Positions 47,500-62,886 of a DNA stretch of 64,000 bases are shown here, piece after piece. The DNA is taken from positions 32,001-96,000 of the IMG/VR virus record IMGVR_UViG_3300027736_000020; one strand, given 5' to 3'. Source of the DNA: a virus. Under the pieces are notes generated by a model. That model was not told the DNA's origin, made no database searches, and was given only the letters and a program-made list of their open reading frames with translations. Within the stretch, counting starts at the first letter, position 1; each line of letters opens with the position of its first letter. A program made the translations under genes and the position numbers.

Positions 47500-49449
47500 T
47501 TATACAATTTCTTCATTATTATTTGCCTTGAATTCATACTCATCAACGACACTATTGTCATATTGAATTTCTGCAACAACGGTGGTTTCTTCTTCTGGGC
47601 TTGAGGCTGTTTCGTCTGAAACAGTAGCGGGAGATGTCATGTACAAGTCAGCAAGCAAGGATTCTGCAGATGGAAGTGTAGTGACAAGACTTGTTCCGGC
47701 GATGGGAAGCCCTTCCCATGCCATACCCGGATCTGTTGTGATATCCTGAGACAATCCAGTCAAGGCATATGGAATTTTTGATCCTCTTGAAACCTTTACT
47801 GAAGTTTGAAAAGCTACTGATGGATGAAAAGTCCATGAATGGGAAACTGTCTCAACGTAATACATTTCATAGTCATCTTTTGTTGAACGCGCTTCGGCAT
47901 TTTTTCCTGCATCAGGCACAATGAATAATTCTTGACCAATGCGTATGTATGGATTTCCAATCATGGAAATCTCTCCTGCAAAGATGTTATGCTGCTGCGT
48001 AAACACATCATACATCCATTGATTTATATTATCAAGTATTCTTGTTATGGTATTTTTTTCGTCAATTTTTTCTGAATCTTTATAGAATCCTTGATTCCAA
48101 AATGGAACTGCAACAATCATTGGCTTGAATCCAAATCTTGACATCCCAAGAACATCATAGAGAGGATTAAACGCATCATTTCCATTGTTTAATGAACAAT
48201 TCAACAAACCGTAATTATCAGGGCCACTGGCATTTGTGAATTGAGGAGAACTACGGCAATCGAATTTTTTGCTTTCAGTTGGAAATTGACTTCCCGAAGA
48301 TGGATTTTCTTCAACAGCGTAATCCCTCCATTTTGTAAAGAAAAAAGTTCTTGTGTCATTGTCATGACGAACCAGTATTTTTGAGAGTATTTCATTCCTT
48401 CCAATGAATGCTCTGTTTCCTGCTTCAACAAATTTTGTCTCATTAAAAAATTTTGCATTGCTAGAATCTAAAGGGATGCTATTTGATGCTTCCACGTTGA
48501 CATTGTTTTCTGAAAGAGAGTCCGCAATGAATCTTCCTTTTGGTGGATAAATACCCCATTTGTTTCTGAATGGTGCCCATCGTAAATGAAAAAATGTTTT
48601 TCCCCTGTATTTTTCCGCAACGGTTGGATCATTCTTGTCGTAGTCAACGACAAGAAACTCAAACATGGGAGCGGGTATGAATGCGGATAACCATGTCCAG
48701 AGTGATCCTTGTGCTTGCAGAATGGTATATTGAGAATTTATTATGTATTCTTCTTGTCCGTCACTCATGGGAATGTTTATTTCGTATTGAATATCTCCAG
48801 CGGAAATTAATTGATTGATTGCATCAAATCCAAGAAATTTATCTGTCAAAACTTCTTTGAACATTTTACTCATAAACTCTGTATACCCAACAAGCGCTTT
48901 GACTGTCCCCTTTGTGTTAGACATTGACACGGGTGTCACAGTGGCATTTTCTGTTGATCGTATGATTGATTGAACACCAACATTTATGAACATTCTTTGT
49001 CTTGCCCTTGAAATCTCATTGATAAATTCAACGGGAGGAACAATGTTCTTTTCAGTAAATATTTTTCCAAAATCTCTTCCAGAGATTGTCACGGATCGCA
49101 CTGGAGATCCTCTTTGAATTGTTTCCGTAACTCTTACGGCATCAACAAGACCTCGCATGATTACGGGAGGATCTTTGATATCATCCCTGATTACGCCTAC
49201 TCGGATTTCACAAAGGTCATTGATATTGATGTCTCCAAGATTCACTACCGTGCCATTGAGAATCGAAGGACGCAGTTCAATCTCCCATTGCCCTGCAGGA
49301 TCAGCAACGGATTTTGTCGTTTTGCCTCGAAGAACAAATTCGGAAACATCATATTTGCCAATCGTGATGCGTTGAGATATTGTTCGAACCTTTTTGGAAG
49401 AATCAAATGAAGAGACTTCTTCTGTGGGACTCTTTCGAAAAGAAATCAT
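47500..49449 (-). CDS. Baseplate hub protein (gp27 / late control D-like)
   Basis: Follows the tape measure; KTTKSVADPAGQWEIEL...MRGLVDAV...SGRDFGK and GEISMIGNPYIRIGQEL...YYVETVSHSW...TSVKVSRG. Confidence 0.82.
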   Translation of the reverse strand: MISFRKSPTEEVSSFDSSKKVRTISQRITIGKYDVSEFVLRGKTTKSVADPAGQWEIELRPSILNGTVVNLGDININDLCEIRVGVIRDDIKDPPVIMRGLVDAVRVTETIQRGSPVRSVTISGRDFGKIFTEKNIVPPVEFINEISRARQRMFINVGVQSIIRSTENATVTPVSMSNTKGTVKALVGYTEFMSKMFKEVLTDKFLGFDAINQLISAGDIQYEINIPMSDGQEEYIINSQYTILQAQGSLWTWLSAFIPAPMFEFLVVDYDKNDPTVAEKYRGKTFFHLRWAPFRNKWGIYPPKGRFIADSLSENNVNVEASNSIPLDSSNAKFFNETKFVEAGNRAFIGRNEILSKILVRHDNDTRTFFFTKWRDYAVEENPSSGSQFPTESKKFDCRSSPQFTNASGPDNYGLLNCSLNNGNDAFNPLYDVLGMSRFGFKPMIVAVPFWNQGFYKDSEKIDEKNTITRILDNINQWMYDVFTQQHNIFAGEISMIGNPYIRIGQELFIVPDAGKNAEARSTKDDYEMYYVETVSHSWTFHPSVAFQTSVKVSRGSKIPYALTGLSQDITTDPGMAWEGLPIAGTSLVTTLPSAESLLADLYMTSPATVSDETASSPEEETTVVAEIQYDNSVVDEYEFKANNNEEIV

Positions 49450-52400
49450 GTGGCTCTCACAATCTGCTTTGATGGATTCAATATTGCATAGTGACTGATT
49501 GCGGCCATGAGATCAACCTCAGTGCTTCCAAGAGAATCACCAGAGGAATTGACAAACTCTATGGTCATCTTGTGAGAGATGGATTGCTGTGACTGTCCTC
49601 TGTCATTGTTGAGACTATTCAAGAAATCATTGGGAAGTATGCGTCCGTTTCCACCCGGCACATAGACTTCCGGACCTTTCTCTCCAACAATGACAGGAGA
49701 GCGGCCAAGGACTTCTCCTCCAGCCGCTTTTTGAGCTAAATCTGAAATGACGTACAGATCATCTTTTGTCACAGAAGTGCCAGTGAAGTCTCTTGGCTTG
49801 CCACCTTCAAGCGTATATGCTTCTCGTACTCTGTCAAGCCAATCAAGTGTTGATTCTGGATTCTCATCGCTGAATCCCGGTGTACCCGACTTTGCGTATG
49901 ATCCATGCCAAAGAAGCAGCGTCTTGTCAATGGCATCGAACGACCGTTGTTTTCCGGAAATCATGCCTTGATTGTAGACAGTTGATCTGATAAGTTGTTC
50001 GTTTCCGTTTTCATCATAGGTGACTTTGTCAAACATGTTGATTTTTTCTGCAATCATTTTGCCTGCAATATCGGCACTGAAAACTGGATTATGGAATGGA
50101 TTCCGATCTTCCTTGGATTTGGAAGGCGCAAGAATTTGAAATAATCCAGTAGCTGATGAGACTGGATTTTCTGCATTGACATCAAAATGACTTTCTTCTT
50201 TCATGAGAGCAAACAGCAAGCGAGGGTCAACAGTGCCGGGGCCATATTTCCCTGAAGCGGCTGATGCTTGCATTGCGCGTTCCTTGAAGAACTCTATGCC
50301 TTCCGGATGACGATTGACAAAATCCACCTCATTGCTCTGCAATGGAACTTTGCTCATGCTATCCTTGAGATCTTTTGCGCTCACTACATAGGAATCGTAT
50401 TGAGGAATAAACGGATGTTCCTGATCAAGCGTGGAAGTCATGCCCCAAGAATTATCCTTTGAGACAAGTGCCTCGCCTGTTTGCATGGATGCCCGCATGC
50501 CTCGATACACAGGTCCACCAAAAGCACGTGCTTCTATGGGCTGAGCAATCATTGCTGTCCTTGCCTGAGGGATCGCGCCTGTATCGAATGCTCTTGCTCC
50601 TCCTGTTATCGCTGCATTTGCAATATCAGTAATCGCTTTTGTAGGTGCGACAATATTTCCTATGACTGCAGATCCAGCATCTGTTATTCCTTTTCCTAAA
50701 ATAATTGGACCTGTAATTGCAGTATTGACTGCAGCTCCTGCAAGCGAAGCAATAGGTTTGTCAATTGGCTGACCGAGCGAGATTGCTGTATATAATTTTG
50801 CAATTGCAGAAGAAAGACTATCTGCTCCAGTTTGAAAAGTGCTTGTAATGCTTGTTATGGCGGATCCAAGCATTTCATTTGCTCTTGTCAATTCTCCGCC
50901 TTCAACCATTGGAGACGTAAGCTGGTTTTTCCCTACCCTATCGGAAAAAATCTCTTGATCAGCCCCCGTTCGTTGATTGCCAGATGGATCAATTACTCTG
51001 CTTCGAATAAATTCATGAATTTTTCCGGCTTGCGCTTGTCGAATCGTATCTTCGTCTTGTCCCGCTTTCACTCCTGCGGAGCGAACATCTCCGAGTTGTG
51101 TGATTAATTCATCCTGAACTTTTTGATTCTTGAATATTCCTTGATTGTTTACCCATCCTGCCAATTCTTCGTCAAACGCTTTGCCTTCATTTGAAGAACT
51201 CAATATGGGAATAAGGGATTTCTGAAGCTGCATTCCCTTTTCTCTTTGTTCTTGCGTATTGGTATCGTTACTTTCAAAAACGCGGGTAAATTGATTCGGA
51301 TTATTATTGAGCGTTCTTTGCCTCGCTCTCTGCGCTTCAGGACTGTTGGTAGCCGCCCTTGCCTTGAGTATCTGCTCTACTCCTGCCGCTCCTGTCTCCA
51401 CTCCCATCTGTTGGGCAACAATACCGTAAACCATGTCATTTTCAAGACTGTCATCAATGATTCCCTTATCATCCTTGCCTGTAAATGATTTCACCATGGT
51501 TGCAATCATTTCATTTCGAAGGTTTGGATCTCCTCCTCGTAATGCACGATTGATTGACATGGGAGAAGTTGGTGCAGAATACGTTTTTTGTTGATCAATA
51601 AGTTTGGATTGTCGAGCTTCCAATTCTTCTTTTGCCGCTTGATCTTCTGCGCTGTTACTAAATTTAGTACCTTGCAATTGTTTTTCAACAGATTCCAATT
51701 CGCTATTTGTACGCTGAAGTAATCCTTGACGTGCTGAATCATATCCAGCAACCATCATCCCCGGAAGTTGTGTTGACCCTATGGCTCCACGAGACACAAG
51801 CGAAGCGTCAAATTTCTGGATTGCTTGTGTGCCAAAACCAATCATTGAGGCATCTCGTTGATTATTAAGCTGACCCATTCCCTGTGAAGCTTGGAATATT
51901 GACGTTTGTGTATCGATTGCATTTCCAATGGAAATATTGCGTCCACCTGATGCCACTTGACCAAGCGCACTGCTTGCTGCATTTTGCAGTGCTTGATCGC
52001 GAAGGGCACCAAATTGACCTTGGCCAATCGCTGCACCAAAATTCCTGTTGAAGCCTATCTCAGTGGCTCCATATCCCTGCCCTCTGCCAAATGTTCCAAC
52101 CAAACCTGAACCACGAAGAGCGTCAACAACTTGACCGTATTGGTTCAAGTTCATTCCAGTCATTCGCGCAGAAGCAATGGTGTCTCCTGCGGAAACTTGA
52201 GAACGAACAACTCTTGTTGATGCACTTATCGAATCAGTAAATCCTTGCAATTCGCGCATGGAAGAAGTCATGAATCGCGTATGTTCAGCAACACTGGTTC
52301 CCAAACCAGTGGATACTTGCTGCACCTTGGTCCTGAAATCAGTCAAGGACATGCCTATATCACGAATTTGCCTGCTGAATTGTCCAAGTTCGTAGTCATT

Positions 52401-52580
52401 ACCCTTTGAGTTAATGACTCCTTCACGAACTTGTCTTTCAAGCCCTTCTGGGGTAAGACCTGCAGTTGTTGCTTGCCATGATCCAAAAACAGAAGCACTG
52501 GAGAGCCCAGCTCCCAGCACTCCCTTCATGACCCCTGTACCCAAGCTTCCTAGATACGGTAAAAGACTCGGTCCGCCCAT
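49446..52580 (-). CDS. Tape measure protein with C-terminal lytic transglycosylase (SLT-like) domain
   Basis: Follows the chaperone ORFs; helical, Gly/Ala/Gln-rich; VDPRLLFALMKEESHFDVNAENPVSSATGLFQI; AAGGEV...VGEKGPEVYVP. Confidence 0.9.
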   Translation of the reverse strand: MGGPSLLPYLGSLGTGVMKGVLGAGLSSASVFGSWQATTAGLTPEGLERQVREGVINSKGNDYELGQFSRQIRDIGMSLTDFRTKVQQVSTGLGTSVAEHTRFMTSSMRELQGFTDSISASTRVVRSQVSAGDTIASARMTGMNLNQYGQVVDALRGSGLVGTFGRGQGYGATEIGFNRNFGAAIGQGQFGALRDQALQNAASSALGQVASGGRNISIGNAIDTQTSIFQASQGMGQLNNQRDASMIGFGTQAIQKFDASLVSRGAIGSTQLPGMMVAGYDSARQGLLQRTNSELESVEKQLQGTKFSNSAEDQAAKEELEARQSKLIDQQKTYSAPTSPMSINRALRGGDPNLRNEMIATMVKSFTGKDDKGIIDDSLENDMVYGIVAQQMGVETGAAGVEQILKARAATNSPEAQRARQRTLNNNPNQFTRVFESNDTNTQEQREKGMQLQKSLIPILSSSNEGKAFDEELAGWVNNQGIFKNQKVQDELITQLGDVRSAGVKAGQDEDTIRQAQAGKIHEFIRSRVIDPSGNQRTGADQEIFSDRVGKNQLTSPMVEGGELTRANEMLGSAITSITSTFQTGADSLSSAIAKLYTAISLGQPIDKPIASLAGAAVNTAITGPIILGKGITDAGSAVIGNIVAPTKAITDIANAAITGGARAFDTGAIPQARTAMIAQPIEARAFGGPVYRGMRASMQTGEALVSKDNSWGMTSTLDQEHPFIPQYDSYVVSAKDLKDSMSKVPLQSNEVDFVNRHPEGIEFFKERAMQASAASGKYGPGTVDPRLLFALMKEESHFDVNAENPVSSATGLFQILAPSKSKEDRNPFHNPVFSADIAGKMIAEKINMFDKVTYDENGNEQLIRSTVYNQGMISGKQRSFDAIDKTLLLWHGSYAKSGTPGFSDENPESTLDWLDRVREAYTLEGGKPRDFTGTSVTKDDLYVISDLAQKAAGGEVLGRSPVIVGEKGPEVYVPGGNGRILPNDFLNSLNNDRGQSQQSISHKMTIEFVNSSGDSLGSTEVDLMAAISHYAILNPSKQIVRAT

Positions 52581-52586
52581 GTTTTT

Positions 52587-53141
52587 CTAGCCTTCGTCGG
52601 TTTTTTCTTCTTCTTCCTTGACCCACTTCCAGAAGTCTTCATCATCAAGACCGAATTCGCTTTCCTCGTTCTTTACCATGCCTCCTTGTGATTTTCGTAT
52701 TGGTGTCTTGAGATGTGGAGGGATGTTTGGATTTATACTTTCTTCTGGAACAGAAAGTTCCTCTGAATCTTCTTCTTCAAATTCTTCTTGATTTCTTCTC
52801 TTTCCACTCTTCAGATCCGAATTGCTTACGGTGTTTGAATCAGTATACTGAAATCCATTCGGAGCAGGAAGAGCGCCTCCAAATTGTTTCAATAATATGA
52901 ACGATGGCATATTGAATTTTATATCTTTGTTTTTAAAATCACGTAATCCATATTGAATTTCATGATAATATTGTCTTCGGTAAAAATCCCTCATTGCCTC
53001 CTCTTCAGAAACTTGGGTAAACCGAGGATCATTTATTGAAAAATTGTATTGAATTCTATACCACTCAAGGATGTCCGAAGATAGAACATCAAGAAGTGCT
53101 TGTTTCTTGATGAATTCCTCACTTGCTGGGTCTGGAAACTC
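52587..53141 (-). CDS. Tail assembly chaperone, second (frameshift) frame
   Basis: +1 frame relative to 53119..53550; no convincing independent start; lies directly before the tape measure gene. Confidence 0.75.
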   Translation of the reverse strand, partial: EFPDPASEEFIKKQALLDVLSSDILEWYRIQYNFSINDPRFTQVSEEEAMRDFYRRQYYHEIQYGLRDFKNKDIKFNMPSFILLKQFGGALPAPNGFQYTDSNTVSNSDLKSGKRRNQEEFEEEDSEELSVPEESINPNIPPHLKTPIRKSQGGMVKNEESEFGLDDEDFWKWVKEEEEKTDEG

Positions 53142-53550
53142 GAAAAGATCCCCTCCATGATTCCCACTCACGATAATAATGAGAAAGATCATCAAATTCG
53201 TAAATGTTTTCCAAGAACTTGTCAATATTTCCATTACAATACGCAGGAAGATATCCCGGAGCTTGTGTAACCATCTGAAGCATGATAGACATCCATGTCA
53301 TTTCATAAGTGCGTTGATCAACGGTGGATCCTTGCAACGCCAAAGCAACCGCTTTTCCTGCGGTTCTTTGAAGATTGAGATGTCCCCTGACCACACCAAT
53401 TGTTCCACATGGGCCGTCAATCTCGTGACACTTTGAAGGATCGTATGACACAGAGTCTTTTGTATACGCAGGCTTCGGAGGTTCTGATGCCTTTGCAATG
53501 ACAGCCGTAATGCTTTCCTTTTCAACGATGGATGTTGTTTCTTCGCTCAA
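53119..53550 (-). CDS. Tail assembly chaperone (G-like)
   Basis: Between tube and tape measure genes; SD AAGGAG places the start at TTG 53550 rather than ATG 53574. Confidence 0.78.
   Translation of the reverse strand: MSEETTSIVEKESITAVIAKASEPPKPAYTKDSVSYDPSKCHEIDGPCGTIGVVRGHLNLQRTAGKAVALALQGSTVDQRTYEMTWMSIMLQMVTQAPGYLPAYCNGNIDKFLENIYEFDDLSHYYREWESWRGSFRVSRPSK
53140..53154 (-). promoter_or_regulatory. Putative programmed +1 ribosomal frameshift site AGG GGA UCU UUU CGA
   Basis: SD-like AGGGGA, a 3-nt spacer, UUU followed by C (Phe tRNA can re-pair to UUC), then a CGA codon; same layout as prfB AGG GGG UAU CUU UGA. Confidence 0.72.
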
Positions 53551-53586
53551 TGTATTTCTCCTTGTGAAATGCATGCTCAGTATAAC

Positions 53587-53643: not shown

Positions 53644-54408
53644 CTATCCTCTGGAATACAAAGAGCTTTCCGCAGAATCCTTGTCTCTTGCATAAAATGT
53701 CACATTGTGCATGAGCACACGATTCGCATCAATGTTGAGATCTCCACCAGCAAAGAAACAATCCTTGTACTTGACAATGGTTCTTGGCCATCTGTTGACA
53801 GCCGGTGTGGAACCCGCTGCATCGACGTGAGAGACTGTTCCTCCTGCAGCGTTCTTAGTGGCTTCGTTACCAGTGTACAGCTGGGCATCCTTGACCTCTA
53901 TATCAAAAACCTTGGAATGGATCACTCTCCAGACTTGAGAAAAGTCTTTGGTTGCGTCCGGACCATTGATTACGTTTCTTGCGCTATTATCTGATGTGGG
54001 GAGCAAATCAAGATTGTCCGCCGCTGTGTCGGTACTAGATCCATATGGCTGAGCCTGCTTATTGTACATTGCGGCACCCGGATCCATTTCCATGTATCCA
54101 TCACCCAATGCATCCCTGCCTCCCCCTGACTTCAGCAGGCCAAAGGATCCAGCTCCCGTAGGCTCAAGTCCCAGCTTTGAAAGACTGATGTTGCGCAACA
54201 CAAGAACAGAAATGGTAATTTCGTGTCGTGCATGCATGGGAACATATTCAATGGTCTGGAGTTGACCAATCACGTTGACGGGTTCAAGTCCATAATCGTC
54301 ACGGAAACGTGCGGATTGTGCAAAGGCAATGGGAAAACCATCCATGTAGATGACGACCTTTCCTCCTGTCCGTACGCCTGTATTCCAAAGCTTCGCTGTT
54401 GTTGTCAT
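53644..54408 (-). CDS. Tail tube protein
   Basis: Directly after the sheath; TGGKVVIYMDGFPIAFAQS...DDYGLEPVNVIGQLQTIEYVP...IVKYKDCFF. Confidence 0.88.
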   Translation of the reverse strand: MTTTAKLWNTGVRTGGKVVIYMDGFPIAFAQSARFRDDYGLEPVNVIGQLQTIEYVPMHARHEITISVLVLRNISLSKLGLEPTGAGSFGLLKSGGGRDALGDGYMEMDPGAAMYNKQAQPYGSSTDTAADNLDLLPTSDNSARNVINGPDATKDFSQVWRVIHSKVFDIEVKDAQLYTGNEATKNAAGGTVSHVDAAGSTPAVNRWPRTIVKYKDCFFAGGDLNIDANRVLMHNVTFYARDKDSAESSLYSRG

Positions 54409-54427: not shown

Positions 54428-57400
54428 TTACAAGATATGTGCGGTGATAAGCAGGTAATTTGCGGGAATTGCCGGACTTATGGAGAAGTCCACATAGATT
54501 GCATCACCAACGGTGCGCACATCAAGATCTTTGTACGCCGGATTGAATGCATTTCCCACAATCAGTCCTGCGCTATCTGCATAGATAAGAGTCGTATTGA
54601 CCCTTCTTGTAATCTCCTGAATGAGCGCTCCATCCAATCTCGACCCAACAAGATCTCGTACGGAATTCCTGACTCGTTTCATGACAATATCTGCACAACG
54701 CATCGTGCTGATTTCGCGTCTGACATAACGTGTATCACCGGTCCATGTCGTCAATGACTGGGCAACGACAAATCCGCGAGAAGCCTCATATTTTATTGCA
54801 AGAACTCCATTGGCCGCAAGATCGTCAATATCGGACGGTTTGGCAATTGTTTCCAAAGCCAACAGGTTGACAGTCTTGTTTGTAAGCGGAATTGATGGAT
54901 CCCTCTGCGCATAGAGAAGTCCGGCAATATATGGGGCAAGATAAACAGGAGACCATGTAATAAGGTTTCCATCTTCGTCATAATCCTTGATTCCCGGCCA
55001 GACAACAACGGCTCGTTTGTCATTGAATGAAGAGGCAAGCGTCTTGACATCTGTAACGCTCTGCCCTGAAGGACCACCAAAGACCGCAAAGCGTTCCTTC
55101 TTTCCAGTTGGAAGCGCCATGTTCTTGCAATGCTCAAGCACTGCAGACTGAATGACCGAGTTAGCGGTCATTGGACAGATAACTTCGACTGTTTCTGCGC
55201 TTTCCAGTTGCGTCAATGCATAGTCCCAGTGATAGGCAGTAACGGCACTCTGTACCGCACCAGAAAATCCATATGATCCGTTGGCGATGGATGATGCAGT
55301 GCCTGTTTTCACAACAGAGAAATGCGGAGAGTACACATCACCGAGGAGTGTCTGATAAATGCGATAGATGTTTCCCCGTAGAATAGTATTCGCAGTAGAG
55401 GAAGCCACAGCAATGGCAGAAGAACTTGGAACTGTTGTTTCAGCAAGAATGTCAAGATTTGTCGAAGAAAATCCAGCGTCTGTATTGCCAGATGCAAGAG
55501 ACAATTTCCAGCCAGTTCCGTTTGCAATATAGCCTTGATTTACTTTTTGAATGATTGAAGAAAGCTGAGGATATTTTGCCCACGTCAACTGGTCTGTTGT
55601 ATTATCAAGTCTGAAGTTTGACCCGGAAATGTCTGTGGGAACACTTGTGTAAGTAACCGTTCCTGTTCCCTTTCCTCCGGCAGCTGATGCGGTAAAACTA
55701 GTGCCTACTGCGTTAGGTGTTGTTCCGGAAGAACCCAACAGTCTGAAATCTGTTGCAAATGCGGTAGTGAATGTTACCTTGTCTGTAACCGCAGCAATGG
55801 GAGCAACAGGCGCAGTCGGAACTCCATATCCTGTTTGTCCAGCAACAGTGACAGTGATCGTGTACGCTGTACCGTTATCTGACACCGATGCAATGACAGG
55901 ATTTAGACCGAGGGAAGAAACAGGAGTTGCCGTTCCTGCCGTAGCAACTGCTGCGACAGTACTGGTATTTGCAATAGTAAACGATGTTCCTGAAATGCTT
56001 GTATTGACTACATGCGTACCGTTATACTCAGTAGGACTAAGACCAGCTAACTTTACCAACGTTCCCGGAGGAAACTGATATCCTGCACCATGAGTAACAG
56101 TCCAAATCGTTCCGTTTGTCGTAATTGCCCCTGTAGCAACAGTTGCAGGAGTGGTTGCTGCTACAGTTATGACAGAAGTCGGATTGATTATTCCATTGGA
56201 AACCAATGCGCCAGTAAGAGCATACGTCCATCCATAGGCTATGGAATACTGGCAGGATGCAATGGTGCCCGTTGAGTCTGTAAGAAGAGTCTGTGCATCT
56301 GTGACGCTGACAATTTTCGCAACAGTTGAAAAAGCTACCATTGTTGTTGAGACAACGGTCTGGCTTGTTGCAGCACCGTTTACTTGCACGGTGTAGGTGC
56401 CAACACCAGTTGTGCCTGTTCCCAATGCGCTGATTTTTGTTCCGGGAAGGACTCCAGTTCCGCCAATCGCCACATTGACGCCAAGAGTAGCTGTTGCAGC
56501 GGTGACGGTCAATGTTGTTCCAGAAATTGATCCAGTAAATACACCCCCATCTCCAAAGGTAATTGTTCCTTCGGTCATGATTCCAGAAAATCCAGTTCCT
56601 GTTACCGTATATCCAGCTCGCGATACAGTATTCACTGCTGTCGCAGGAATCACGCTTGTTCCTGCGGTGACTGTTCCAACGGTCATCGCTGAGTTGGCAT
56701 TTAATGCATTGCTGGTTAATGTTGCTGTTTTGACAACGTTAGCGGGAGCGGTGTTTTGCGAGATTGTGTAGTATCTTCCCTGTACAAGATTCCCTGCGGT
56801 TACCGTAGATGTCTCTGAAGGATTTCCCGATGTTGCTGTCAGCTCAATTCCTGTTCCTGTTATTCTTACCTTGGGAATAATCGATGCAAGGTTTGCCGCT
56901 GCATTGACATTACTAGCGCCATCATTGTTGATATACTCAACCTTGAGCAAATCCAATCCGACATTATCCGTGACAAAAGTCGCACCTCCATCACGAGTCA
57001 ATGTGATTTTCTTGTATCCGGTTTTTCCATTGGAGGCATTTGCAAGTGACAATAGCCAAGAATTTCCGTAGTAGCCATATTCCTTCGCTGTCAAGGTAAA
57101 AGGGGAAAATGAAGTGGTTGCTTGCGAAGCAGTCGCAGCAATTGACGAACCTGCTGCAGTGGTTGTGGTAATAGGACTTCCGATTCGTACGGCAATGACT
57201 CTTGGAGCGCCAGCATTGAACGCCTTCCTGAGACCAAAAACCAAAGGATTGGTTACGGGATCTGGGTCTCCATAATAGGCAAGTGCGGTATTGTAATTGC
57301 TGAAAGCCAACGGCTTGCCGGGTTCTCCTCGCACAGCTTCACCCATGATGACCATCTCTGGTCCAGTGCTTGGCGCTGCTGCGAATGATGCATTATTGTC

Positions 57401-57460
57401 ATCAATGTAGGATGCTACTCCCGGAGCGATCAATGTTACTCCATTAAATGAAACTGCCAT
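54428..57460 (-). CDS. Tail sheath protein with large internal insertion
   Basis: MAVSFNGVTLIAPGV; MGEAVRGEPGKP; HCKNM...KKER; NGVL; RREISTMRCAD...VGDAIYVDFSISPAIPANY. Confidence 0.95.
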   Translation of the reverse strand: MAVSFNGVTLIAPGVASYIDDNNASFAAAPSTGPEMVIMGEAVRGEPGKPLAFSNYNTALAYYGDPDPVTNPLVFGLRKAFNAGAPRVIAVRIGSPITTTTAAGSSIAATASQATTSFSPFTLTAKEYGYYGNSWLLSLANASNGKTGYKKITLTRDGGATFVTDNVGLDLLKVEYINNDGASNVNAAANLASIIPKVRITGTGIELTATSGNPSETSTVTAGNLVQGRYYTISQNTAPANVVKTATLTSNALNANSAMTVGTVTAGTSVIPATAVNTVSRAGYTVTGTGFSGIMTEGTITFGDGGVFTGSISGTTLTVTAATATLGVNVAIGGTGVLPGTKISALGTGTTGVGTYTVQVNGAATSQTVVSTTMVAFSTVAKIVSVTDAQTLLTDSTGTIASCQYSIAYGWTYALTGALVSNGIINPTSVITVAATTPATVATGAITTNGTIWTVTHGAGYQFPPGTLVKLAGLSPTEYNGTHVVNTSISGTSFTIANTSTVAAVATAGTATPVSSLGLNPVIASVSDNGTAYTITVTVAGQTGYGVPTAPVAPIAAVTDKVTFTTAFATDFRLLGSSGTTPNAVGTSFTASAAGGKGTGTVTYTSVPTDISGSNFRLDNTTDQLTWAKYPQLSSIIQKVNQGYIANGTGWKLSLASGNTDAGFSSTNLDILAETTVPSSSAIAVASSTANTILRGNIYRIYQTLLGDVYSPHFSVVKTGTASSIANGSYGFSGAVQSAVTAYHWDYALTQLESAETVEVICPMTANSVIQSAVLEHCKNMALPTGKKERFAVFGGPSGQSVTDVKTLASSFNDKRAVVVWPGIKDYDEDGNLITWSPVYLAPYIAGLLYAQRDPSIPLTNKTVNLLALETIAKPSDIDDLAANGVLAIKYEASRGFVVAQSLTTWTGDTRYVRREISTMRCADIVMKRVRNSVRDLVGSRLDGALIQEITRRVNTTLIYADSAGLIVGNAFNPAYKDLDVRTVGDAIYVDFSISPAIPANYLLITAHIL

Positions 57461-61287: not shown

Positions 61288-62886
61288 TTAGTAAGACTGC
61301 GCCTTGTTCAAGATCCGCTCTTGCAACTTCGGAGGAAGCTGCTTGAACACTCCCACTGGACCAGTAGTCGGACTATCAGTCTCAGTTAACCACCGCAGGG
61401 CTTCTTTCGGCGAAAATTCGCCATCAAGAACAGATTGTTGAATGATGGAACCAACCAACGACTTGGTAAGACGTTGCTCAGTGTCCGTTCCATCGACAAT
61501 TGCACGACCTGTGTCATCGATCATGACGTTTGCCTTGCGAAGGGCCTGACCCTCAACAAGAACCCTGCCATTCATGAGCACTCCGGGGTTCATTTCGCGC
61601 ATGTCTTCGCCGCCATTGGCAAAGGACTTGTTCAATGTTCCACCGTTTTGTGCAAGCGCAGCTGTGGATTTCGCCATTCTTTCAAGACCCAAGGCAAGTG
61701 CGGCTTGAGACTTGACAACAGTGCTTACCGCATTGGCAAGCATTGCCGTGGACTGATACTGCTCTTCGCGAACTGCCTCCACCTGCTCGGAAATGTCAGA
61801 GAGGAAACGTCCGAAAACATTCACCATCTGAGCAAGTTCCTTGCTGGCTTCGACAACTTCGGCGACTCGGGCACCGTCAGGACCATCAACGAGAGCCTTG
61901 TGAATATCACCGAGTTGAACAGGCGAAAAGCTCTTCTTGGTCATCTTCTTCTTCGCTCTGGCACGGGCCATTGCTCGAAGACGTGAATCCTGCTCTTCAT
62001 CCTCTTCCTCGTCCTCATCATCTATGCCATCGCCATCCGCATCGTCCTCGTCGTCTTCTTCGTCATCGTCGTCTTCTTCGTCGTATTCGTCGTCTTCGTC
62101 GTCGTCATCGTCATCGTCATCGTCGTTACGACCGTATGCCTTACCCATGGGCATACCCTTGCCATCTTCTTCTTCTTCTGGGTCCATGTCATCATCGGCA
62201 CCCTGAGCACCATCACCGGCACCCATTCCGCCCGGACCACCCGGACCACCCGGACCACCCGGACCACCCGGACCACCCTGTTGGGATTGCATTCGGCGCT
62301 GCAGTTCCTGCATCACCATCTGCTTCTGTTCTGGGGTGAGCTTGGCCCACATGGCGGGATCAATGCCCGGAGGACAAGGAATGTCTCCGCCCTCGTCATC
62401 CTCGCCACCCGGAGGAGGTCCACCTTGAGGAGGTCCACCCATCGGTCCACCCGGAGGAGGCCCACCCATCGGTCCACCCGGAGGAGGTCCACCCATCGGT
62501 CCACCCGGAGGAGGTCCACCCGGCATGGCCTTGCCCATCTTGGGAAGAGCAGTGCTCTGCTGATTCTTGGCATGCTTGCCCCTGCGCTTGTTGCTGCTTC
62601 CTTCGACATTCTGCGCATTGGAATAGACACCCGCAAACTTCTCGGGATTGATCAGTCCACGCTTGCCCATTCTCAGGATGTCAGGCGATCCGCCATCGAT
62701 TTCCTTTCCAAAAGGCGAAGTCAGAATCTTACCCTGAAGATTTCCCTTGTCGGTGATCGTGCCACTCTTGGCCAGATCGATCAACCCGGAAACAGCTTTG
62801 TCCAAAACGGACAACGCATCAGGGATGTTATGCTGATTCAATTCCCTTTCTAACTTGGCACGAGCCGCGTTCATTTCATTAGCCAT
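61288..62886 (-). CDS. Probable capsid scaffold protein with large low-complexity regions
   Basis: Between protease and capsid genes; coiled-coil C-half; Gly/Pro repeats and a poly-Asp/Glu tract. Confidence 0.6.
   Translation of the reverse strand: MANEMNAARAKLERELNQHNIPDALSVLDKAVSGLIDLAKSGTITDKGNLQGKILTSPFGKEIDGGSPDILRMGKRGLINPEKFAGVYSNAQNVEGSSNKRRGKHAKNQQSTALPKMGKAMPGGPPPGGPMGGPPPGGPMGGPPPGGPMGGPPQGGPPPGGEDDEGGDIPCPPGIDPAMWAKLTPEQKQMVMQELQRRMQSQQGGPGGPGGPGGPGGPGGMGAGDGAQGADDDMDPEEEEDGKGMPMGKAYGRNDDDDDDDDDEDDEYDEEDDDDEEDDEDDADGDGIDDEDEEEDEEQDSRLRAMARARAKKKMTKKSFSPVQLGDIHKALVDGPDGARVAEVVEASKELAQMVNVFGRFLSDISEQVEAVREEQYQSTAMLANAVSTVVKSQAALALGLERMAKSTAALAQNGGTLNKSFANGGEDMREMNPGVLMNGRVLVEGQALRKANVMIDDTGRAIVDGTDTEQRLTKSLVGSIIQQSVLDGEFSPKEALRWLTETDSPTTGPVGVFKQLPPKLQERILNKAQSY
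62231..62278. repeat. 9-bp tandem repeat (cccggacca)x5, encoding GGP
   Basis: Directly visible at 62231-62278. Confidence 0.95.
62406..62521. repeat. 27-bp tandem repeat encoding GGPPPGGPM
   Basis: ccacccggaggaggtccacccatcggt units, about 4 copies. Confidence 0.9.

Follow-up and report, generated by a model that had tools for sequence, protein, structure and literature searches.

A predicted programmed +1 frameshift at a UUU_CGN site in the tail assembly chaperone locus of an uncultured lake phage

Results

Tail genes and overlapping frames at the locus

The window, i.e. the whole 64,000-nt stretch of viral DNA analysed here, belongs to a 184-kb single-contig phage genome that was detected in lake metatranscriptomes. 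The minus strand carried genes for the capsid, sheath and tube, followed by a pair of small ORFs and then the tape measure gene (Table 1); the pair lies in the position between tube and tape measure that is classic for the G/T chaperone. Isolated relatives of the tube protein were PHB04/Dolphis-like myoviruses and Herelleviridae, and the best explanation of these genes is that the window derives from an SPO1/phi812-like, contractile-tailed lake phage; for the G/T locus, no match was found in isolated phages or GTDB genomes. The capsid gene was preceded by a 532-aa gene (61288-62886) that was scaffold-like by position and whose product contains GGPPPGGPM repeats and an extended stretch of Asp/Glu.

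Table 1. Tail genes and frameshift-related features in the window. Pairing energies are in kcal/mol.
Feature	Position	Strand	Evidence or remarks
Tail sheath (contractile tail)	54428..57460	-	phrog_279, E 3e-36
Tail tube protein	53644..54408	-	phrog_985, E 6e-17; Pfam Phi812_tail_tube in relatives
G ribosome-binding site AAGGAG, 7 nt ahead of TTG	53558..53563	-	-8.5 with anti-SD
Tail assembly chaperone G (predicted), 143 aa from TTG	53119..53550; stop TGA 53121-53119	-	Tube/tape-measure position; 36 homologues; PHROG chaperone link via P0039
SD-like run GGAGGGGA	53149..53156	-	AGGGGA 3 nt ahead of the P-site codon, as in prfB (-6.0); a stronger GGAGG with 6-nt spacing (-8.7) overlaps it; clade-specific
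Frameshift cassette TCT TTT CGA (predicted)	53140..53148	-	E-site UCU, P-site UUU (53145-53143), A-site CGA; TCN TTT CGN conservation
T extension, 184 codons, +1 frame	52587..53141	-	EWYR.QYN, DFYRRQ and GG.LP.PNG motifs conserved; acidic tail
First in-frame ATG past site, T codon 50	52992..52994	-	GAGGAGG-CA ahead; a start there would drop the EWYR motif
Tape measure protein with SLT domain	49446..52580	-	Start 7 nt past end of T

Read in frame with G on the minus strand, positions 53154 to 53140 were AGG GGA TCT TTT CGA, followed by a G. The +1 frame stayed open from 53297 until its stop codon at 52589-52587, and the -1 frame was closed by 17 stops. Unlike TTG 53550, a longer alternative start of G at ATG 53574 had no SD upstream. 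The predicted products were G (143 aa, 16.1 kDa) and a G-T fusion of 320 aa (37.0 kDa) with the junction ...WRGSF-EFPDPASEEF and the diagnostic peptide GSFEFPDPASEEFIK, to which a -2 shift would add one residue. The sequence, frames and lengths of the original prediction, including a 320-aa fusion counted from TTG 53550, were thus reproduced on the minus strand.

The site was crossed without an indel by RNA-library contigs from two lake studies (X1 record 1 and X5 record 21), so the slip site is not an assembly error, although such assembled contigs carry no information on strand, level or rare variants. Among the genome's 98 other long genes, none had an in-frame TTT CG within its last 11 codons (0/98), which, together with the invariance of the site in relatives, speaks against a chance occurrence. 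When the window was shuffled 100 times, the pattern AGGGG-N4-TTTCG alone arose in 9 of the shuffles. A 9-bp hairpin with a T-rich tail just past the G stop (53112-53087) was rejected as a 3' stimulatory structure: it had a broken pair already in L001, and was not conserved.

Eight tRNA genes were located outside the window (genome C1 136834-141234), including one for Arg(UCU), which fits the use of AGA as the most used Arg codon. None of the eight was for Phe or for CGN codons, and decoding of CGN therefore relies on host tRNAs. Codon use in the phage, per 1000, was 6.8 for CGA, 8.3 for CGU, 6.2 for CGC and 3.4 for CGG. CGA was thus not rare, and the earlier suggestion of a slow CGA in the A-site found no support in codon usage or in the relatives, most of which have CGU or CGC at this position.

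Conservation of TCN TTT CGN in the lake family

Conservation among 36 G homologues extended through the motif W-E-x-W-R-[NG]-S-F-R, beyond which the protein was variable. At the DNA level we compared 24 distinct lake-family loci; scanning viral contigs by DNA, in a way unbiased as to codons, added no loci to this set. TCN TTT CGN was present in all 24, which bears out the expectation that the slip motif is conserved. In the 23 close relatives, the slip-site Phe was TTT in every case and never TTC, cf. 77% TTT elsewhere in G and 11 TTT to 12 TTC at the other invariant Phe of G among the same relatives. The slip-site Arg was likewise CGN rather than AGR in 23/23, cf. 76% CGN elsewhere in G. With rows taken as independent, the invariance of TTT and CGN gave p ~0.003 and ~0.002, respectively, values that are overstated because the rows are related. 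The A-site codon was CGU in 12 relatives, CGC in 8, CGA in 2 and CGG in 1. The E-site codon was UCN in 24/24 loci and never AGY, with UCU in the window and UCG the commonest, cf. UCC in influenza. The P-site and A-site codons support, from sequence, the predicted site and a P-site change from UUU to UUC. The Arg after Phe could partly reflect protein constraint on G.

Across lake-family loci, the G stop fell 1-9 codons past the slip-site Phe, and in L015 it was the codon directly after CGT. The +1 frame opened just 39 nt upstream of the site in L005, L029 and L030. The T region lay in the +1 frame in all relatives, which, with the closed -1 frame, agrees with the predicted direction of the shift. 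One distant G relative, P0039, known from protein, has SFE in place of SFR and its next gene is still in +1; it is possibly an exception or uses a different slip site.

At the place of window 53154-53146 in 23 relatives (L002, L005, L008, L015, L022, L030 and others), the third base of the Arg codon that lies three codons ahead of the slip was a purine in every case (CGA 14, AGA 5, AGG 4), although in the rest of G CGC/CGU are the prevailing Arg codons. CGAAAC-TC-GTTTCG, the ancestral context, forms an inverted repeat retained across deep branches; as a mini-hairpin it was not supported, with a mean energy of -4.0 vs -3.6 +/- 0.4 for synonymous shuffles. A shared 3' stimulatory structure was also rejected, as the 60 nt after the site had no common fold.

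The SD-like run is restricted to one clade

The SD-like AGGGGA at prfB spacing (3 nt) was real in the window, and the original prediction had called the shift prfB-type and SD-stimulated. The review by Atkins et al. (PMC5009743) describes 3-nt SD spacing as favouring +1 stimulation and prfB sites as being without a competing SD directly 5'. We weighed a variant of the same +1 slip in which, within the window's clade, 16S rRNA pairing to AGGGGA drives or tunes the event as in prfB. Pairing of AGGGGA in the prfB register was -6.0 kcal/mol, weaker than the -8.3 of prfB AGGGGG, and extending the 16S tail gave no gain; pairing as good was reached at only 2% of the genome's 225 in-frame TTTC sites. 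A competing GGAGG(G) at 5-6 nt spacing, of the kind avoided by prfB sites, overlapped the run and paired better (-8.7 to -9.8). AGGGGA arose through six changes in nine otherwise constrained bases, including Asn to Gly, and was kept in the window, L001, L007 and L050; however, these belong to a single clade (3 of 24 loci counting L007/L050 together, support 100/97) and so amount to one event, and retention of the three codons between the window and L007 is expected about one time in four at 62% synonymous identity. This clade was nested among relatives reading CGA AAC TCG, and 14 of the 23 close relatives had CGA AAC and no SD. An SD-like run at the site was likewise absent from 9 of 9 Herelleviridae tested for one. 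Conservation, which had been proposed as a check on the motif, thus went against its AGGGGA part.

A purine-rich SD-like run was also present at the site in four of seven PHB04/Dolphis-group phages (-5.7 to -6.1), although there it encodes a conserved Lys-Glu. PHB04 and Touem01 have AAGGAGG five bases ahead of UUU. It is conceivable, though doubtful, that an internal SD run tuning a +1 slip on a sense codon was added to the ancestral UUU_CGN site in the window's clade and, in a separate event, in the PHB04/Touem01 group; if true, nature would have a prfB-like stimulator that works with no stop codon and sets the G:G-T ratio. Overall, we consider pairing-driven or pairing-tuned slippage unlikely: since AGGGGA is clade-restricted, GGAGG competes with it and the A-site holds a sense codon rather than a stop, the locus is not a prfB-type member and the SD is not required.

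Independent starts and other slip routes

The T extension was 171-234 codons long in 23/23 complete relatives, and its EWYR motif lay 26-27 codons past the slip site in 22/22. No start codon was common to the T regions, and six relatives had no ATG, GTG or TTG in the first 60 codons; both the predicted fusion and the predicted lack of a conserved start for T are consistent with these sequences. Gene callers annotate T as a gene in its own right, which would start at ATG 53234 or at ATG 52994 behind GAGGAGG. The former yields a 215-aa ORF, but it has no SD (+0.5) and arises from Asn-Gly codons of G, and 8 of 22 relatives have ACG or CAG in its place. The latter is preceded by an SD-like run (-7.9), but falls past the best-conserved T motif and is present in 4 of 23 loci, making it at most a possible, unconserved internal start. 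No internal sigma-70 promoter for T was found on the minus strand. As a separate gene would also leave the invariant TTT CG unexplained, we regard this reading as very improbable.

Equally improbable are two other routes into the +1 frame. One is a -2 slip of the Mu kind at GGG GA, where in the window's clade GGA might shift back by two bases and pair as GGG; the other is slippage of RNA polymerase along the four consecutive T of the window. Both lack a conserved substrate: the G run occurs in just 3 of 24 loci, most lake-family loci have only three T, and the RNA contigs cross the site without an indel, though contigs drop rare variants.

Wider phage families with the same site

In 17 of 17 isolated phages examined, the conserved part of G closed with NNN TTT CGN and T followed in +1. 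Ten of these were Herelleviridae, namely JL and nine others that span five host genera, and seven were PHB04/Dolphis-like phages. For most of the Herelleviridae, the +1 frame opened 6 nt before TTT and G stopped three codons after it, which leaves a 14-nt interval for the shift and pins it to TTT CGN. GenBank records of related Bacillus and Staphylococcus phages (BillyBob, Nigalana, JL and Terranova) already annotate +1 joins (length 3n+1), and a +1 shift in the tail chaperone of the SPO1-like Bacillus phage Moonbeam has been published as an "unusual +1 frameshift" (PMC4299906), with the direction named, but neither a site nor an experiment given. HSTV-2 is listed as a likely +1 G-T case in the review by Atkins et al. 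(PMC5009743). A +1 shift in a G/GT gene, put forward as notable, thus does set the locus apart from the -1 shift of lambda, but it is not new to phages. A literature search, thin on subscription journals, found no paper naming UUU_CGN as a phage site or proving the fusion.

The lake G and T are, from profile evidence, homologous to the chaperones of PHROG 1038, 4988 and 25000 through intermediates, although the homology is distant. P0039 matched the lake profile (E 7e-9), phrog_25000 (4e-8) and phrog_1038 (3e-7). In profile comparisons, lake T matched PHB04/Dolphis-group T (probability 95%, E 3e-8) and PHB04 T matched Herelleviridae T (probability 89%); the direct match of lake G to known chaperones was weak (probability 47%, E 2e-4). 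Neither G nor T of the window had a direct Pfam or PHROG match, and tblastn of 50,697 phage records gave no direct match to the locus. In a check for the TAC fold, the predicted structure of G was of low confidence (pLDDT 59) and fold searches returned no clear structural match. The top ESM Atlas matches for the locus were unnamed, with chaperone families at 0.88-0.89, which we treat as a lead only.

In public records, the TTT CGN +1 site found in all seven of Dolphis, ST4, fHe-Yen8-01, PHB04, ECML-606-1, Touem01 and Mecenats66 (L034, L043-L048) lies in what are annotated as two separate hypothetical genes. Many Herelleviridae records, such as L033, L037, L039 and L040, wrongly name the T region 'RNA polymerase (beta subunit)' (phrog_1316), whereas it is a chaperone frameshift extension.

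Discussion

We conclude that the locus most probably carries a programmed +1 frameshift of the UUU_CGN (PA-X-like) kind in a G/G-T tail assembly chaperone, to which we assign a probability of roughly 85% from comparative sequence evidence. Under such a mechanism, most ribosomes would read UUU CGA in frame and stop seven codons on, giving G. In a minority, peptidyl-tRNA-Phe (anticodon GAA), held on UUU by a wobble pair during the wait for decoding of CGN in the A-site, would re-pair one base forward to UUC, a better match, in a single P-site slip that would not need an SD; translation would then run through T to give G-T. We infer that the fusion is made, that it arises by P-site slippage at low efficiency, and that the products have a chaperone role. 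By analogy with lambda, G would coat the tape measure protein and T would recruit the tube protein, with the slip setting the G:G-T ratio.

The closest relatives of this arrangement are the +1 chaperones of Herelleviridae (PHROG 1038, 4988 and 25000), which occupy the same gene position, use the +1 frame, close the conserved part of G with N(C)N TTT CGN, and have the G C-terminal motif W..W..[ST]FR and a related T motif, W...[FY].L...DPR[FY]. The lake locus differs in being highly diverged, in belonging to an uncultured freshwater clade and in its longer overlap, and an upstream SD-like run is found only in the window's sub-clade. Like lambda gpG/gpGT (Xu, Hendrix, Duda), it would yield a short and a long chaperone from two overlapping ORFs that lie between tube and tape measure, of which the second lacks a start of its own. 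However, lambda, as summarised in PMC5009743, shifts -1 on an X_XXY_YYZ heptamer, and Mu shifts -2, whereas the lake shift would be +1 on a single P-site tRNA.

In influenza A PA-X, a +1 slip on UCC UUU CGU was proven by mass spectrometry at ~1% efficiency (Firth 2012, PMC3498833). The likeness that had been proposed to this site is upheld, as both have UUU_C in the P-site, CGN in the A-site and no obvious stimulator; the E-site codons agree only as far as UCN. The lake site differs in its bacterial ribosome, its E-site UCU (any UCN in relatives) and its unrelated protein, and its shift is predicted from sequence.

The prfB gene (RF2) combines an A-site stop codon and RF2 feedback with a P-site CUU_U, on which CUU slips to UUU. 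The window shares with it the +1 direction, a single P-site slip and an SD-like run 3 nt upstream, but its A-site is a CGN sense codon, it has no RF2 feedback, the slip would be from UUU to UUC, the SD-like run is not conserved and a competing upstream SD is present. From these sequence features, the lake site probably works like influenza PA-X and not like prfB, an indication that the minimal signal of PA-X also acts on bacterial ribosomes. Beyond cultured Herelleviridae, the +1 UUU_CGN chaperone shift is thereby extended to a freshwater clade without cultured members and to PHB04/Dolphis myoviruses, and the natural series of 5' contexts (AGGGGA vs CGAAAC) is suited to asking whether an SD tunes a UUU_CGN site.

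The surroundings of the cassette also varied among the lake-family loci. No long tape-measure gene was called directly after T in L016 (3670-5344), the gene following T in L003 opened with Pro-rich PGPNP repeats, and L019/L020 (1111-2423) had a tandem pair of tail-tube genes ahead of G.
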